A stretch of DNA of 64,000 nt from sequence record PQ433349.1; one strand, written 5' to 3'. A model generated the notes under the pieces. It searched no databases. It worked only from the letters and a program-made list of their open reading frames with translations, and had not been told where the DNA came from. Shown here in pieces: positions 24,419 through 39,169 of the stretch. The stretch is from Escherichia phage vB_Ec-G1. Positions within the stretch are counted from its first letter, which is position 1. Each line of letters opens with the position of its first letter. The translations under genes were made by a program, and so were the position numbers.

Positions 24419-25378
24419 TTAGATTCCAATAATAGTTGCTGCTCGTTTATCTTTGGATCTGGTGTTTGCTCTACTACGTGACAAACCTCCACAAGATTCA
24501 CAACGAATGATATCGAAAGAACTTACCGCAGTGTGGTATTGCTTACCAGTAACAACGTGAACATGATCACTGCCGCAACGAGAACAACGGACTTTCTCAT
24601 CTGGGTAATAAGCGGATAAGTTAGGATGCTGTGGAATCCACGGAAGGATTTTCATATACAAATCACGGAGTGAAACAACATCACCATCATTGTAAATCTG
24701 CATACGTTCAAAAGCATCACGATCACCTTCACAACATGCTTTCCATAAAGGGAACCCCTCGTTATCCAGTTTTTCACTTTCTGTTTCGAAATATGCTCCC
24801 ATTTCTTTAAGGGAGTTGGAAGGAAGTGCAAATTGTTTCTTAGCTGCCTTCAATGTATCAACAACTACATAATTAGAAGGAGGAGCCATATCGTGATATG
24901 CAAATCGTTGGTTAATGTATGCACGGTCAAACTTATACCCGTTGTGTGCCACAACTACATCTGCCTCGTTCAGAAGGTTCCAAAGATCTTGGCAAAGCTC
25001 CCAATCATCTGTATGATCAATATCAAAAAGAGGATAAGAAGACAAGTTCTTACCTTCCACTTCACCAGTATACAGGTCAGCAGAAGAGTAGGATAACAAA
25101 TAACCTCTGCGAATTACCTGGTCTGGAGAAATGAAGGCTTTGAATCGACGGAAAGTATATGCAATCTCTGGTGCAGTTTCAACATCAATAATTTTAATAA
25201 CTGGTTGTTTCTTTTTAACGGGTTCTTGTTTACTTCCACTGAAACGTGCAAGGAAATCATTTACTGTGCTTTTTCTTGTTGGGCTACCTAAAACAATTGC
25301 TGCAATATTTCGAGAAGACATACCCTCTGCACTCATACTAAGGATATCTGCTTTCTGCTCTTCTGTTAATCTGCTCAC
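24419..25378 (-). CDS. DEDD-family 3'-5' exonuclease (DnaQ-like) with N-terminal HTH and C-terminal zinc ribbon
   Basis: Exo I IIDVET, Exo II HNGYKFD, Exo III YNDGD; CSRCGS...CESCGG; N-terminal helix-turn-helix-like segment. Confidence 0.7.
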   Translation of the reverse strand: MSRLTEEQKADILSMSAEGMSSRNIAAIVLGSPTRKSTVNDFLARFSGSKQEPVKKKQPVIKIIDVETAPEIAYTFRRFKAFISPDQVIRRGYLLSYSSADLYTGEVEGKNLSSYPLFDIDHTDDWELCQDLWNLLNEADVVVAHNGYKFDRAYINQRFAYHDMAPPSNYVVVDTLKAAKKQFALPSNSLKEMGAYFETESEKLDNEGFPLWKACCEGDRDAFERMQIYNDGDVVSLRDLYMKILPWIPQHPNLSAYYPDEKVRCSRCGSDHVHVVTGKQYHTAVSSFDIIRCESCGGLSRSRANTRSKDKRAATIIGI

Positions 25379-26493
25379 TCTGCCTCCTGTTGCGAGATGT
25401 ATGACTGAAGCATACTCTCAAATGTTGTATCGTCATTATCCCAGCGTTTCATGTATACCAACTGGAAAATTGTTTCTATCCATTCATCTGTTGTCATATG
25501 GACTTCTTCTCCATCCCAAGAAGTAAAATTAACACCATCTGGGAACCATGAGTAGTAAGTATCTTTAACTGTTTGGAAAAGTTCTGCTTGAGTTTTACAA
25601 GCTGAAAGAAGATTAAAACAAGTAATATCTCCGAACTTAATATCAAAATCTTGATAAGGTCGGATACTATCTGTTTTATCTCCCATTAGCATCTGATATG
25701 CTAACCAGTAACTGCCCCAACCTTTAACTTCTTTCTTTTTACCTTTATCTACGATCCATATATCGCCAATAGACTCGTCAATAAGAATTATATCTGGATT
25801 TTTAAATACTCCATCCTCTTTGTAGAAATTAAAAAGGATACTAGGAGTATGTAAACTATCTTTATCTATAGACACTACGATATAAGAAAATTTACCCGTC
25901 CTTTTATAATCTTTATAACCTTGGAAACCATACTTCTCTAACTCATCATCAGCTTCTATTACAGTAACAACATCACCATTGTGGAACTCCACAAGATAAT
26001 CTTTGGTTTCTGAAAGCTGAAGTGGTTTGATATCTAATCGTTCAGATTTATATTCTACAGGCATTTTGAAGGCGTGTCTGAAAGTTTTTCCTACGCCAAT
26101 AACTCCGCAATATTTTTCTAAACGTAGATGTTTTAGAATACCTAAGACTTTTGTTTTAGCTGCTTGGAAGGTGTGTCCGATATCTTCTGGCGGGTATTGC
26201 TTATCAATGATTTCGAACTCTTCCTTTGTGAAGGGACGTTTGTTTTTGGAGGCTCTTTCTGCATTTGTATCTCCTAGCCAACCTCCAATTTTAGTCTTGC
26301 TTTTACCCCAAAACTCTGTCTTATTTTTAAATTCCTTTTGAGCACCTGAAGGGATGTGCTTCGCAATGATTGTTCTTTTCTCTAATGCAGACGCTGCTTG
26401 GAAAGCGATCTGATCATAATCAATTGCAGCTATTGTTTCTTCGTTGACATATAAATGAAGATCTTCAGGTTTAATTAAAATATAACCGCTAAT
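25375..26493 (-). CDS. flap endonuclease / RNase H (5'-3' exonuclease); start codon uncertain
   Basis: IDYDQIA (T4 RNase H IDFSQIA-like), GKS...YK.R, IDESIGD, MGDKTD motifs; frame open to stop at 26506-26508 with no in-frame ATG/GTG upstream of 26064. Confidence 0.65.
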   Translation of the reverse strand: MSGYILIKPEDLHLYVNEETIAAIDYDQIAFQAASALEKRTIIAKHIPSGAQKEFKNKTEFWGKSKTKIGGWLGDTNAERASKNKRPFTKEEFEIIDKQYPPEDIGHTFQAAKTKVLGILKHLRLEKYCGVIGVGKTFRHAFKMPVEYKSERLDIKPLQLSETKDYLVEFHNGDVVTVIEADDELEKYGFQGYKDYKRTGKFSYIVVSIDKDSLHTPSILFNFYKEDGVFKNPDIILIDESIGDIWIVDKGKKKEVKGWGSYWLAYQMLMGDKTDSIRPYQDFDIKFGDITCFNLLSACKTQAELFQTVKDTYYSWFPDGVNFTSWDGEEVHMTTDEWIETIFQLVYMKRWDNDDTTFESMLQSYISQQEAE

Positions 26494-26505
26494 ATTTCCC
26501 CCTAA

Positions 26506-26715
26506 TTATTCATCGTCATCCTCTGTTGAGAATGTTTTAGTATACGGACATTGACGACTTTTCGGGATTGCTATAACTTCATCTTGGTTAGCGTTAGAAT
26601 AGTAGCAATATTTTGTGTTGCCATTAACTTCAGAATCAGACAAGATTAAAGTAATTTGACCTGCTGCTACTGTGAAACTAAAAGCTAAAAGAACGACTGT
26701 CAGAATCTTTTTCAT
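26506..26715 (-). CDS. small secreted/periplasmic protein with signal peptide
   Basis: MKKILTVVLLAFSFTVAAGQ signal-peptide-like N-terminus; two Cys. Confidence 0.5.
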   Translation of the reverse strand: MKKILTVVLLAFSFTVAAGQITLILSDSEVNGNTKYCYYSNANQDEVIAIPKSRQCPYTKTFSTEDDDE

Positions 26716-26787
26716 AACGCCTCCTAAAAAGCCTACCTCATTAAGTAGGTAGGCATAATATCATAACTAATCCCGCAAGTCAAGAAC

Positions 26788-33494: not shown

Positions 33495-33965
33495 CTAAGC
33501 AGGCATGATTAAAAAAGAACTCTCTACTTCAAAATGCCAATCCTCCACAAGCCCTGATTCCCAATCCTTCTCTTCATGGAAAGAGCAAATCCAACGGTAC
33601 ATACCTGGCGGTGTATTCTCAACATCTTCTGGCAACCCATAATCCAAAGCTGTCTTACCGTTCTCTGTAAAACTAGGATGGAGATTAGGAGCTTTCAATA
33701 CAGAAACCCTGCCTCCAACATCTACAGCCACAATCCACTCTGTCATGTATGGGCTGTCATATTGAGGCTCATCAGAACCTAACTCAACAGCCTCTGTGCG
33801 TAAGATGATAATAGCCTGCTCTGTGATTGGAGCTTTGACAATATAACCGTGGTCCTCAAAAAGATCGATAACCTCGAACTCATCGCCGTTTTCGACACCA
33901 TAACTCTTATTCAAAGAGATAAACTTCGGGTTATCATCGTAAGCTTTAGTTACTTTAATTCTCAT
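33495..33965 (-). CDS. hypothetical protein (156 aa)
   Basis: Minus ORF. Confidence 0.5.
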   Translation of the reverse strand: MRIKVTKAYDDNPKFISLNKSYGVENGDEFEVIDLFEDHGYIVKAPITEQAIIILRTEAVELGSDEPQYDSPYMTEWIVAVDVGGRVSVLKAPNLHPSFTENGKTALDYGLPEDVENTPPGMYRWICSFHEEKDWESGLVEDWHFEVESSFLIMPA

Positions 33966-34186
33966 TTTTCCTCCTTCACTTTAACCTCAAATTCTACAGG
34001 CTTACCCTCAATGTAAAAACACTGATACTCTGCCTTATCATCCTCGTCACGAGGCCAAGTTACCAAGGAGTTATAGCAATCTTCTGGTGCTTTGAAGATG
34101 TTTTTAGTCTCCACAGTAACATTCCCATTAAGTGTTGCCAATACCACCCAACCAGCTACAGGGATCATAGTGTCTCCACTTTCCAC
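33962..34186 (-). CDS. hypothetical protein (74 aa)
   Basis: Small minus ORF with stop/start overlap. Confidence 0.4.
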   Translation of the reverse strand: MESGDTMIPVAGWVVLATLNGNVTVETKNIFKAPEDCYNSLVTWPRDEDDKAEYQCFYIEGKPVEFEVKVKEEK

Positions 34187-34347
34187 GTTTTACCATTATC
34201 AACCAAGGTCTTTGCTACAGCATACTCCTTCCCATTAATAATGAAATAATAAACTATAAAAGATTTTCCGATTGTTACTGTCTTAGTAACCTCTACGCGT
34301 TTAACACCTTGCATGTATTTCGCCTTACCGGAATAGAGTAAAATCAT
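34165..34347 (-). CDS. hypothetical protein (60 aa)
   Basis: Small minus ORF. Confidence 0.4.
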   Translation of the reverse strand: MILLYSGKAKYMQGVKRVEVTKTVTIGKSFIVYYFIINGKEYAVAKTLVDNGKTWKVETL

Positions 34348-37238: not shown

Positions 37239-37313
37239 GGCCCTGTAGCTCAATGGGAGAGCTGTCGGCTCATAACCGATAGGTAGCTGGATCGAAACCA
37301 GCCAGGGCCACCA
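37239..37313 (+). tRNA. tRNA-Met (anticodon CAT; elongator or Ile2-type)
   Basis: Acceptor GGCCCTG/CAGGGCC, anticodon loop CTCATAA, T-arm, encoded CCA. Confidence 0.75.
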
Positions 37314-37315
37314 AC

Positions 37316-37390
37316 GTCTTTATGGTGTAATGGATAGCACAGGAGTCTTCTAAACTCTTAGTCAAGGTTCGATTCCTTGTAAAGACACCA
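37316..37390 (+). tRNA. tRNA-Arg (anticodon TCT)
   Basis: Acceptor GTCTTTA/TAAAGAC, anticodon loop CTTCTAA, T-loop TTCGATT, CCA. Confidence 0.8.
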
Positions 37391-37586
37391 GAACATTTTA
37401 ACATGAATTAGCTCAAGTGATTTGAACCCACTACTGATCATGGTGGCAGAGAATGAGGCAAGTATGTCAGACATTATAAACAAAGGCCACGGTTATATTA
37501 GAAGACATAAATGCTCGAAGAGCACCGTTCGTGGAGAACGGGGGTTGGTGGAGTCACCATTCATGGTAAAATGTTTTAAAAAACTA

Positions 37587-37615
37587 TTGACAACAAACAT
37601 TATTTTATGTTAGAT
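37587..37615 (+). promoter_or_regulatory. candidate sigma70-type promoter upstream of tRNA-Ser
   Basis: TTGACA, 17-nt spacer, TTAGAT. Confidence 0.4.
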
Positions 37616-37624
37616 TATAAATAT

Positions 37625-37715
37625 GGAAGGGCAAATCGACGTGGCGACGAAAACGGTCTTGAAAACCGCCGAGCTTGAAAGAGCCTTGGGAGTTCGACTC
37701 TCCCTCCTTCCGCCA
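37625..37715 (+). tRNA. tRNA-Ser (anticodon TGA), type II
   Basis: Acceptor GGAAGGG/TCCTTCC, anticodon loop CTTGAAA, long variable arm, CCA. Confidence 0.7.
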
Positions 37716-37740
37716 GATTGGTAGATTGGTAGATTGGTGA
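37716..37740 (+). repeat. tandem direct repeat (gattggta x3) overlapping tRNA 5' end
   Basis: gattggtagattggtagattggtg read directly. Confidence 0.6.
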
Positions 37741-37813
37741 AATGGTAGCCACAACAGTTTGCTAAACTGTAGTCGGAAACGGCGTGTAGGTTCGAGTCCT
37801 ACATCTACCGCCA
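37728..37813 (+). tRNA. tRNA-Ser (anticodon GCT), type II
   Basis: Acceptor GGTAGAT/ATCTACC, anticodon loop TTGCTAA, long variable arm, CCA. Confidence 0.7.
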
Positions 37814-37943
37814 AGTTCTTTTTAATATAGCTTACTTTAATAGAGTAAATTTTCGGCAGATGGCCCCCATCATCTTACCGATACCTCATAGTTAGTGGTG
37901 CGAACACTGGCTATTTTAAAAAGAATTTAAATATTAGTATTTA

Positions 37944-38031
37944 GGTGAGTTAATTCCGTAGGGGTAGCGGGGCAGACTGTAAATCTGTTATCATTGCGAT
38001 TCGGGTGGTTCGACTCCATCACTCACCACCA
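37944..38031 (+). tRNA. tRNA-Tyr (anticodon GTA), type II
   Basis: Acceptor GGTGAGT/ACTCACC, anticodon arm GCAGA-CTGTAAA-TCTGT as in bacterial tRNA-Tyr, discriminator A, CCA. Confidence 0.7.
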
Positions 38032-38037
38032 AATTAA

Positions 38038-38123
38038 GATGAGTTGGCTGAATGGTTTAAGCAGCGGACTGTTAATCCGTGTTCGAAAGAACAATATAGG
38101 TTCGAATCCTATACTCATCGCCA
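38038..38123 (+). tRNA. atypical tRNA with anticodon GTT (Asn) on a Tyr-like type II scaffold
   Basis: Acceptor GATGAGT/ACTCATC, anticodon loop CTGTTAA, extra GTTCGAAAGAAC hairpin before T-arm, discriminator G, CCA. Confidence 0.5.
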
Positions 38124-38130
38124 GAATTAT

Positions 38131-38207
38131 GGACTTGTAGAGTTAAGGTAAACCCCCAGTCGCCAATAGGCTTCTGGAATTGCAGGTATCGAATCCTGCC
38201 GAGTCCC
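38131..38207 (+). ncRNA. tRNA-like element without canonical anticodon arm (possible pseudo-tRNA)
   Basis: Acceptor-like GGACTTG/CGAGTCC and T-arm-like GCAGG-TATCGAAT-CCTGC, but no 5-7-5 anticodon arm with U33 could be folded. Confidence 0.3.
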
Positions 38208-38213
38208 AGCATT

Positions 38214-38288
38214 GCTCCTATAGTATAATGGCTATTACAACGGTTTTGTAATCCGTGGATCTCTGTTCGATTCAGTGTGGGAGCACCA
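38214..38288 (+). tRNA. tRNA-Thr (anticodon TGT)
   Basis: Acceptor GCTCCTA/TGGGAGC, anticodon loop TTTGTAA, T-loop TTCGATT, CCA. Confidence 0.7.
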
Positions 38289-38561
38289 ACACAACATTAA
38301 GAGCACTGTGATTGATCGTCGTATCCTGTGCACAAGGTCTGCTCGAAAGACAGTGTTCTTAGTATTGTGTTGATCACAAAAAGAGTCACCCGAAACTTGA
38401 CCGGAGTAGGGTTGGATGGGGCAAAATGAGAAGCGGCTCTCCCATCGACAGCAACGAAGAATAATATTTGACTTTGGTTTTGTATTATTTTAAGTTAGCT
38501 TACCGAACGTAGGGCTAGTCACCCAACGGGATACTCGTCACTGTCCCAATCAATAAAAGTC

Positions 38562-38591
38562 TTGACAACAAATAGTAAAATGTAGTATAGT
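38562..38591 (+). promoter_or_regulatory. sigma70-type promoter upstream of tRNA-Gly
   Basis: TTGACA, 18-nt spacer, TATAGT; tRNA starts about 12 nt downstream. Confidence 0.6.
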
Positions 38592-38602
38592 AAATATATA
38601 GG

Positions 38603-38676
38603 GCGTTCTTGGTGTAGCGGTAGCATTCCGTCCTTCCAAGTCGGCGGCACGAGTTCGATCCTCGTAGAACGCTCCA
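38603..38676 (+). tRNA. tRNA-Gly (anticodon TCC)
   Basis: Acceptor GCGTTCT/AGAACGC, anticodon loop CTTCCAA, T-arm ACGAG-TTCGATC-CTCGT, CCA. Confidence 0.7.
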
Positions 38677-38774
38677 AATTATTTAATAAAGGGTTGCCAG
38701 AAAACTTTCTCTTTTACTCATGGTTTTCTCCTTCTCTCACACTTCTTCTGGTTGCCCTTCATTAAATGATTTAT

Positions 38775-38850
38775 TGGTTTGTAGTGTAGTCCGGTAGCAC
38801 ACGACACTTTGACTGTCGTAGGTTTGGTTCAAATCCAGACAGACCAGCCA
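38775..38850 (+). tRNA. tRNA-Gln (anticodon TTG)
   Basis: U1:A72 acceptor TGGTTTG/CAGACCA, anticodon arm CGACA-CTTTGAC-TGTCG, CCA. Confidence 0.75.
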
Positions 38851-38855
38851 TATAA

Positions 38856-38932
38856 CGGAGTTTAGCTCAGTTTGGTAGAGCATACGCTTTGGGAGCGTAG
38901 GGTCGCAGGTTCGAATCCTGCAATTCCGACCA
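38856..38932 (+). tRNA. tRNA-Pro (anticodon TGG)
   Basis: C1:G72 acceptor CGGAGTT/AATTCCG, anticodon arm TACGC-TTTGGGA-GCGTA, T-arm GCAGG-TTCGAAT-CCTGC, CCA. Confidence 0.8.
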
Positions 38933-38938
38933 ATTAAA

Positions 38939-39012
38939 TGTTTCGTAGTTCAATGGTAGAACCCACGACTGATAATCGTGAGACACAAGTTCGATTCTTG
39001 TCGAAACAACCA
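38939..39012 (+). tRNA. tRNA-Ile (anticodon GAT)
   Basis: Acceptor TGTTTCG/CGAAACA, anticodon arm CACGA-CTGATAA-TCGTG, T-loop TTCGATT, CCA. Confidence 0.75.
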
Positions 39013-39014
39013 GT

Positions 39015-39085
39015 TTCCCGTTAGACTTACAGGATAAGAGTTCCACAGCTTATTGTGATGCTGGTTCGAATCCAGCACGGGATAC
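39015..39085 (+). ncRNA. degenerate tRNA-like element (intact T-arm, no canonical anticodon arm)
   Basis: T-arm GCTGG-TTCGAAT-CCAGC and acceptor pairing TTCCCGT/ACGGGAT present; no loop with U33 and purine-37 found. Confidence 0.3.
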
Positions 39086-39090
39086 ATAAT

Positions 39091-39169
39091 AGCGGGATAG
39101 AGGAGTCTGGTCGTCCTCGCCAGTTTCATATGCTGGAGATCATCGGTTCAAATCCGATTCCCGCCTCCA
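39091..39169 (+). tRNA. tRNA-Met (anticodon CAT), second copy, A1xC72 mismatch
   Basis: Anticodon arm CCAGT-TTCATAT-GCTGG, T-arm ATCGG-TTCAAAT-CCGAT, CCA; first acceptor pair unpaired. Confidence 0.6.

Follow-up and report, generated by a model that had tools for sequence, protein, structure and literature searches.

Both the AUU start codons of the Escherichia coli genes infC and pcnB and the sensitivity of these starts to initiation factor IF3 are established: AUU is used inefficiently, IF3 discriminates against it, and expression of IF3 itself (from infC) and of poly(A) polymerase I (from pcnB) is limited or regulated (PMC3592434). The infC gene also starts only a few nucleotides past the stop of the cistron before it (PMC3592434 and references therein). 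In Enterococcus faecalis, an ATT start for the pilus gene ebpA was predicted in silico, whereas databases placed the start at an ATG lying about 120 bp further downstream; expression is attenuated by the ATT (PMC4447247). The Streptomyces gene sigR starts at GTC, which is repressed by IF3 and provides a handle for translational regulation (PMC5472188). Here we describe a gene for a predicted 5'-3' exonuclease of the flap endonuclease (FEN) type, carried on the minus strand of a 64,000-nucleotide stretch of Escherichia phage vB_Ec-G1 (PQ433349.1; the whole stretch is hereafter called the window), whose translation very probably starts at ATT, as judged by comparison with its relatives.

The phage gene has its AUU in common with infC and pcnB, and, as infC does, it starts a few nucleotides past the stop of the preceding cistron. 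It differs in encoding a nuclease and in having a start codon that drifts among AUU, AUC, AUA and CUG across relatives, whereas the AUU of infC is fixed; autoregulation is a trait of infC, and we liken the phage gene to infC and pcnB from sequence comparison. The ebpA start belongs to a bacterial pilus gene and was verified experimentally, whereas the phage case is comparative, and here mis-annotation removes 143 codons. The sigR gene differs in both codon and organism, and for the phage gene we only hypothesize a dependence on IF3. Near-cognate initiation itself is known from infC, pcnB, ebpA and sigR, and the ATT start described here is already present in one database record; our literature search found no paper describing this start or the clade-wide pattern of weak starts reported below. 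The exonuclease start thus appears to be a new, well-supported example of infC/pcnB-type near-cognate initiation.

A long open frame without a canonical start codon

A sequence-only reading of the window had described a frame open from the stop at 26506..26508 through the open reading frame (ORF) beginning at ATG 26064, with no in-frame ATG or GTG ahead of a conserved IDYDQIA motif. A frame scan bore out both statements. On the minus strand the frame is open from 26505 to 25378 (376 codons), bounded by TAA 26508..26506 and TGA 25377..25375, and its first ATG, GTG or TTG is ATG 26064, so that TTG is absent from the leader too. The distance given for the motif has to be corrected: IDYDQIA comprises residues 24-30 counted from an ATT at 26493, which places it about 115-120 codons upstream of Met 26064 and not about 150, the figure of 147 codons being the distance from the opening of the frame to that Met. 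The start region reads ...GAA TAA TTA GGG GGA AAT ATT AGC GGT TAT..., and the Shine-Dalgarno (SD)-like element that had been noticed before the in-frame ATT is present as A(26503)GGGGG(26498) AAAT ATT(26493..26491). The spacing between SD and start in the canonical genes of the window has a mode of 4 nt (16 of 34 genes), and the spacing at the ATT equals this mode. The features of the gene are as follows.

25375..26493, minus strand: full-length 5'-3' exonuclease/flap endonuclease gene, 372 codons plus TGA stop 25377..25375 (open frame, PHROG 107 match, AlphaFold2 model, coding sequence in the ESCO13 record)
26491..26493, minus strand: proposed initiation codon ATT (AUU), from alignment with ortholog starts
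26498..26503, minus strand: Shine-Dalgarno element AGGGGG, read from the sequence and followed by the 4-nt spacer AAAT (26497..26494)
26065..26490, minus strand: N-terminal coding region, codons 2-143 (nonsynonymous divergence, pN, far below synonymous divergence, pS; Asp25 and Asp27; structural model), missing from most public annotations
26421..26419, minus strand: Asp25 codon
26415..26413, minus strand: Asp27 codon
26062..26064, minus strand: internal Met144 codon, the start in most public records, judged not to be the real start

A missing start codon might reflect a sequencing or assembly error, or a pseudogene in the present isolate, and nothing beyond the missing start itself points in that direction. 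The window belongs to a Phapecoctavirus genome (phAPEC8-like, a group of coliphages in the subfamily Stephanstirmvirinae): a 1.6-kb region around the gene shows 99-99.8% identity to genomes of this group and matches 64 phage records at a nucleotide identity of at least 95%. The start region is identical in these 64 records, which come from many laboratories and sequencing platforms, and the same start architecture is found in metagenomic contigs as well. An error or a pseudogene is therefore extremely improbable. The sequence-only reading had left two options, AUU or other non-canonical initiation on the one hand and a sequence error on the other; comparative evidence favors the first, while the second, under which resequencing would uncover an in-frame ATG or GTG, is contradicted by dozens of independently sequenced genomes that have none.

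No other gene of the window has a long leader lacking a canonical start, although short extensions would escape this screen, and the same screen over 150 kb of the near-identical genome NC_052654.1 returned no other such gene. One plus-strand candidate (33959..34249) was rejected, being antisense to real genes. Because the exonuclease is the sole long-leader gene of this kind, the feature is gene-specific and does not reflect a general relaxation of start choice.

The region upstream of Met144 is coding sequence under purifying selection

Most public records annotate a 229-aa product from ATG 26064, the first canonical start of the frame, and so cover only the final 60% of the protein; the open frame upstream would then be an untranslated relic. 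No SD precedes this ATG, however, and Met144 is Leu or Thr in relatives. Over the 142 codons upstream of Met144, pN is 0.16-0.26 against a pS of 0.66-0.82 (saturated) in comparisons with relatives at 74-83% protein identity, and the C-terminal part of the exonuclease shows the same behavior. The frame stays open across lineages with saturated synonymous sites, and it is open and conserved in all relatives, to an identity as low as about 30%. Conservation begins at codon 2, with Ser encoded as AGC, TCT or TCA, then Gly, then Tyr or Phe. Since the residues of codons 2-4 are kept as protein, translation must include codon 2.

The same region holds conserved Asp residues and part of the predicted fold. 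D25 and D27 vary little or not at all in alignments of 13 and 58 homologs, in which R139, Y148, K149, E180, D182, D183, D210, K211, D212, D272 and D275 are further invariant residues. The N-terminal 147 aa alone match PHROG 107 at E=5e-7, sub-threshold matches to PF02739 in distant homologs place roughly profile positions 31-70 of this 164-position N-terminal nuclease domain upstream of Met144, and the AlphaFold2 model has core-fold strands and helices at residues 5-141. We conclude that the 143 codons before ATG 26064 are real coding sequence under purifying selection. A 229-aa product would be without the catalytic residues D25 and D27 and without core strands, three of which sit upstream of Met144, and we regard it as very improbable that such a product is the real one.

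Near-cognate start codons across relatives

Aligning the gene with its orthologs, a check that the sequence-only reading had suggested, locates the start: the ATT coincides with their ATG, TTG and GTG starts. In the Certrevirus ortholog (GAGGAGTGAGTA ATG GGT TAT) the ATG aligns exactly with the ATT of the window, and rV5-like phages (AGGAGGGTCT TTG AGT AGA GAA TAT) have TTG at the aligned codon. Other members of the Vequintavirinae sister clade have TTG, GTG or ATG at this position. Across this sister clade the exonuclease genes mostly use TTG or GTG and not ATG (loci L006, L051, L053, L057, L058, L061-L065, L067, L068 and L084), indicating that a tendency of the exonuclease gene toward weak starts reaches beyond Stephanstirmvirinae. 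More distant outgroups start at ATG.

For the clade to which the window belongs, we compared 20 distinct lineages at 49-100% identity, drawn from phages in GenBank, from IMG/VR and from assembled read sets. At the start position, ATT is found in nine, ATC in six, ATA in three and CTG in two; ATG, GTG and TTG occur there in none. All 20 have GGAGG or GGGGG, then 4-5 nt, then the near-cognate codon. In a neighbor-joining tree the weak-codon clade is monophyletic, with several switches among ATT, ATC and ATA and one ATA/CTG pair. One locus, L019, has an in-frame TAA immediately before the equivalent ATC, so that its frame opens at the ATC and nothing upstream can contribute. In phage phi92, the SD and ATT lie 84 nt upstream of the annotated GTG.

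Several in-frame ATT, ATA and TTA codons occur among the first 10, and initiation might occur at one of these slightly downstream codons, such as ATT 26481 or ATT 26475. Such codons lie at least 15 nt from the SD, against a modal spacing of 4 nt, and they are not conserved as near-cognates, with ATT replaced by ATA, AAA or ACT in relatives. The Ser-Gly-Tyr of codons 2-4, in contrast, is retained in the protein while the codons undergo synonymous and AGC/TCN changes. A downstream start is improbable on these grounds, and the alignments argue strongly that translation starts at the near-cognate ATT 26493..26491. An out-of-frame ATG in TAT-GTC (about 26451) was also considered and rejected; it lies downstream of the conserved codons 2-15, and its frame stops after 6 codons.

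A predicted full-length exonuclease of the flap endonuclease type

The assignment to the flap endonucleases made in the sequence-only reading agrees with the fold, which matches T5 FEN and E. coli ExoIX, and with the sub-threshold matches to PF02739 in distant homologs. The family compared here is that of the PIN-like 5'-3' exonucleases/FENs (Pfam PF02739 plus PF01367). Residues 14-371 of the full frame have a match to PHROG 107 ('exonuclease') at E=1e-55. An AlphaFold2 model of the 372-aa protein has a predicted local distance difference test score of 96.2 and a predicted template-modeling (TM) score of 0.89, with regular secondary structure from residue 5. The best Foldseek matches of this model in the PDB are T5 D15 FEN, E. 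coli ExoIX and the Mycobacterium smegmatis Pol1 5'-nuclease, with probabilities of 0.96-1.0 (1.0 for T5 D15 FEN and ExoIX), E-values of 1.6e-4 to 5e-3 and target-normalized TM scores of up to 0.58.

The motifs of the family, FRxxxxxxYKxxR, EADD, DKD and GDxxD, are present together with acidic metal-binding clusters. The phage protein shares these motifs and clusters with T5 D15, ExoIX and the Pol I 5'-nuclease domain, its best structural matches, yet its identity to them is only about 12-14%. It also exceeds them in length by about 100 aa, and has insertions that lie between the first strand, which carries D25 and D27, and the FR...YK motif. A direct sequence search of the PDB with the window protein gave nothing useful, whereas a 13-sequence profile gave a marginal match (E=0.07), with a sensible alignment of the motifs, to 9l56_A, a '5'-3' exonuclease family protein'. 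Distant homologs match PF02739 at E of about 1e-6, but with 24-28 bits, below the cutoff of 34.3. Together, profile and model support the prediction that the product of the gene, at its full length of 372 aa, is a 5'-3' exonuclease of the FEN type.

The exonuclease start lies close to an upstream stop codon

The cistron that ends just ahead of the exonuclease is the following.

26506..26715, minus strand: upstream 69-aa ORF with signal peptide, ending at TAA 26508..26506, 12 nt before the ATT

In phi92, the annotation of the counterpart of this ORF, gp086, includes a signal peptide, which supports the one predicted here. In the window, the 69-aa ORF and the exonuclease share a frame with one TAA between them, and a 444-aa 'fusion' protein is present in a public protein set; readthrough of the TAA, or a frameshift, could in principle yield a fusion of the small ORF and the exonuclease. 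Several observations speak against this. The upstream stop of ECGD1, phi92 and phiWec179 is out of frame with the exonuclease, whose own frame has a separate upstream stop; L036 and L038 have another gene upstream (encoding a methyltransferase and an HNH protein, respectively); and a signal peptide joined to a DNA nuclease is implausible. The 444-aa protein (P0005, L027:1501-2835) is an artefact in which a TAG of the DNA appears as Gln, and the translation of its locus differs from the query; its source is a short contig on which genes were called with a recoded-stop genetic code (TAG=Gln). We consider a fusion product to have next to no probability.

The stop of the upstream gene lies within about 20 nt of the exonuclease start in all loci with an upstream gene called, except L032, and this near-universal arrangement suggests that coupling or re-initiation may contribute to exonuclease synthesis. 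At three loci (L019:998, L036:574 and L038:535) the upstream stop falls inside or adjoins the region of SD and start (TAGGAGG..., GGAGGTAAC CTG and GGAGGAGTAA ATC). The proximity of stop and SD is seen even where the upstream gene is unrelated (the methyltransferase or the HNH protein). It is compatible with termination-coupled initiation, yet typical of compact phage genomes.

A model for weak initiation of the exonuclease

We propose that AUU 26493..26491 initiates translation, positioned by the AGGGGG 4 nt upstream, and that, by analogy with E. coli infC and pcnB, initiator fMet-tRNA reads the AUU; the protein would then begin (f)Met-Ser-Gly-Tyr-Ile-Leu. Ribosomes that have just terminated at the 69-aa ORF may supply some of the initiation through coupling or re-initiation, and discrimination against AUU by IF3 would limit exonuclease synthesis. 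The model builds on what is documented above, namely where the start lies, that the N-terminal region is coding and that the protein has a FEN fold, and adds by inference the identity of the initiating tRNA, the coupling and selection for weak expression.

Non-canonical codons in E. coli initiate at 0.01-2% of the AUG level (bioRxiv 10.1101/063800), and re-initiation, which an excess of IF3 reduces, still requires initiator tRNA (PMC2268962). The clade swaps among AUU, AUC, AUA and CUG, all highly inefficient starts disfavored by IF3, without fixing AUG, GUG or UUG, which makes low nuclease synthesis the likely purpose of the arrangement. By analogy with infC and pcnB, the most likely reading is that the weak codons hold nuclease synthesis low, possibly in an IF3-sensitive manner. 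IF3-limited or IF3-regulated expression is suggested by the biology of infC and pcnB together with the 20 lineages that lack a canonical start. Whether weak initiation itself is the selected trait seems to us an even call. A more elaborate version, in which selection keeps the gene on the weakest starts, with a strong SD and, nearly always, an upstream stop no more than about 20 nt away, so that its synthesis depends on IF3, on re-initiation or on both, is tentative and on balance doubtful. If true, it would amount to a phage device for dosage or timing, analogous to infC autoregulation and conserved over the whole subfamily. An extreme variant has re-initiating ribosomes use the elongator tRNA cognate to the codon, so that the protein would begin with Ile or Leu, and is at best very unlikely.

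Four points weigh against the account given here. Reporter assays show very weak initiation at AUC, AUA and CUG, and an adequate yield of enzyme from such codons is hard to explain. That ATG is missing from about 20 lineages suggests selection for weakness without being statistically decisive. Our literature search, which did not extend to proteomic data sets, returned no ribosome-profiling study of the exonuclease subfamily. Finally, the window protein has no match in Pfam (E<=1) or NCBIfam; taken with its match to PHROG 107, this makes it a divergent branch of the superfamily and not a model-level member.

We also considered whether a phage-encoded initiator-like tRNA could make AUU or AUC cognate, and rejected the candidates: tRNA-Ile(GAU) and two tRNA-Met(CAU) are without initiator features, having no GGG:CCC anticodon stem, and positions 1:72 are paired in two of them. 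RNA folding of 131 nt around the start gave no structure beyond that of shuffled controls (z=-0.35), and thus nothing to indicate that the ribosome is positioned by a structural element. The tRNA cluster of the window (37239..39169, plus strand) has 10 genes by ARAGORN, with an eleventh tRNA-like match from Rfam at 37944..38028. In one of its members, tRNA-Met(CAU) at 39091..39169 (79 nt), there is an A1xC72 mismatch and the D-loop is unusually long, and one of the two CAU tRNAs may be a tRNA-Ile2 (lysidine).

Public annotation of the exonuclease

The ATT start is annotated in one record, that of phage ESCO13 (KX552041.2/NC_047770.1), where AQM50955.1 is exactly the 372-aa coding sequence from ATT, accompanied by a ribosome-binding site (RBS) feature. 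This is annotation only, and the corresponding genome announcement makes no mention of an ATT start. Every other Stephanstirmvirinae record that we inspected, RefSeq included, cuts the nuclease short, at 229 to about 345 aa. The 229-aa calls are all without the catalytic Asp residues, and the GTG calls of Justusliebigvirus begin at residue 29, after D25 and D27. For phi92, the curated record itself comments on its downstream GTG start, 'No RBS identified; weak Prodigal statistics'.

Standard gene callers accept only ATG, GTG and TTG, which accounts for the truncated nuclease in public records. The missed ATT start has also led to filler ORFs being called inside the unannotated N-terminal region (26142..26264 on the minus strand and 26027..26341 on the plus strand), which are out of frame or antisense; examples are phAPEC8_00121, WPEC4 CDS215/216 and phi1_175008 CDS0099/0100. 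The 372-aa model should replace the truncated annotations.

The gene also provides an unusually clear natural series, in which an essential-looking nuclease of replication or recombination keeps a near-cognate start across lineages with saturated synonymous sites. The clade of the window swaps among four weak codons; its sister clade uses UUG, GUG or AUG. The series is a tractable one in which to ask whether selection favors weak starts as a limit on a potentially toxic nuclease, and whether IF3-dependent discrimination among start codons is exploited by phage genes.

Transcription context and neighboring genes

Upstream of the exonuclease lie an RdgC-like gene and the 69-aa ORF, and downstream a gene for a DnaQ-like exonuclease subunit. 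One further feature precedes the 69-aa ORF.

26731..26783, minus strand: promoter-like site TTGACT-17-TATTAT, then hairpin and T-run, upstream of the 69-aa ORF (consensus scan only)

The site resembles a near-consensus sigma70-type promoter, with TTGACT, 17 nt and a TG-extended TATTAT. Directly after it comes a hairpin (GCCTACCT...AGGTAGGC plus TTTTT), followed by the SD and ATG of the 69-aa ORF. The consensus match makes this site the likely transcription context for the 69-aa ORF plus the exonuclease. A terminator is annotated at the hairpin site in the Schickermooser record; the hairpin could terminate transcription of the RdgC-like gene, form a 5' stem-loop on the new transcript, or do both.

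The start of the DnaQ-like subunit (25336..25378, minus strand) is annotated inconsistently, at GTG 25378 in some records and, in RefSeq, at an ATG 42 nt downstream. GTG 25378 overlaps the stop codon of the exonuclease (GTGA) and is preceded by GGAGG with a 4-nt spacer, the modal spacing of the phage, and it looks the better start for this gene.

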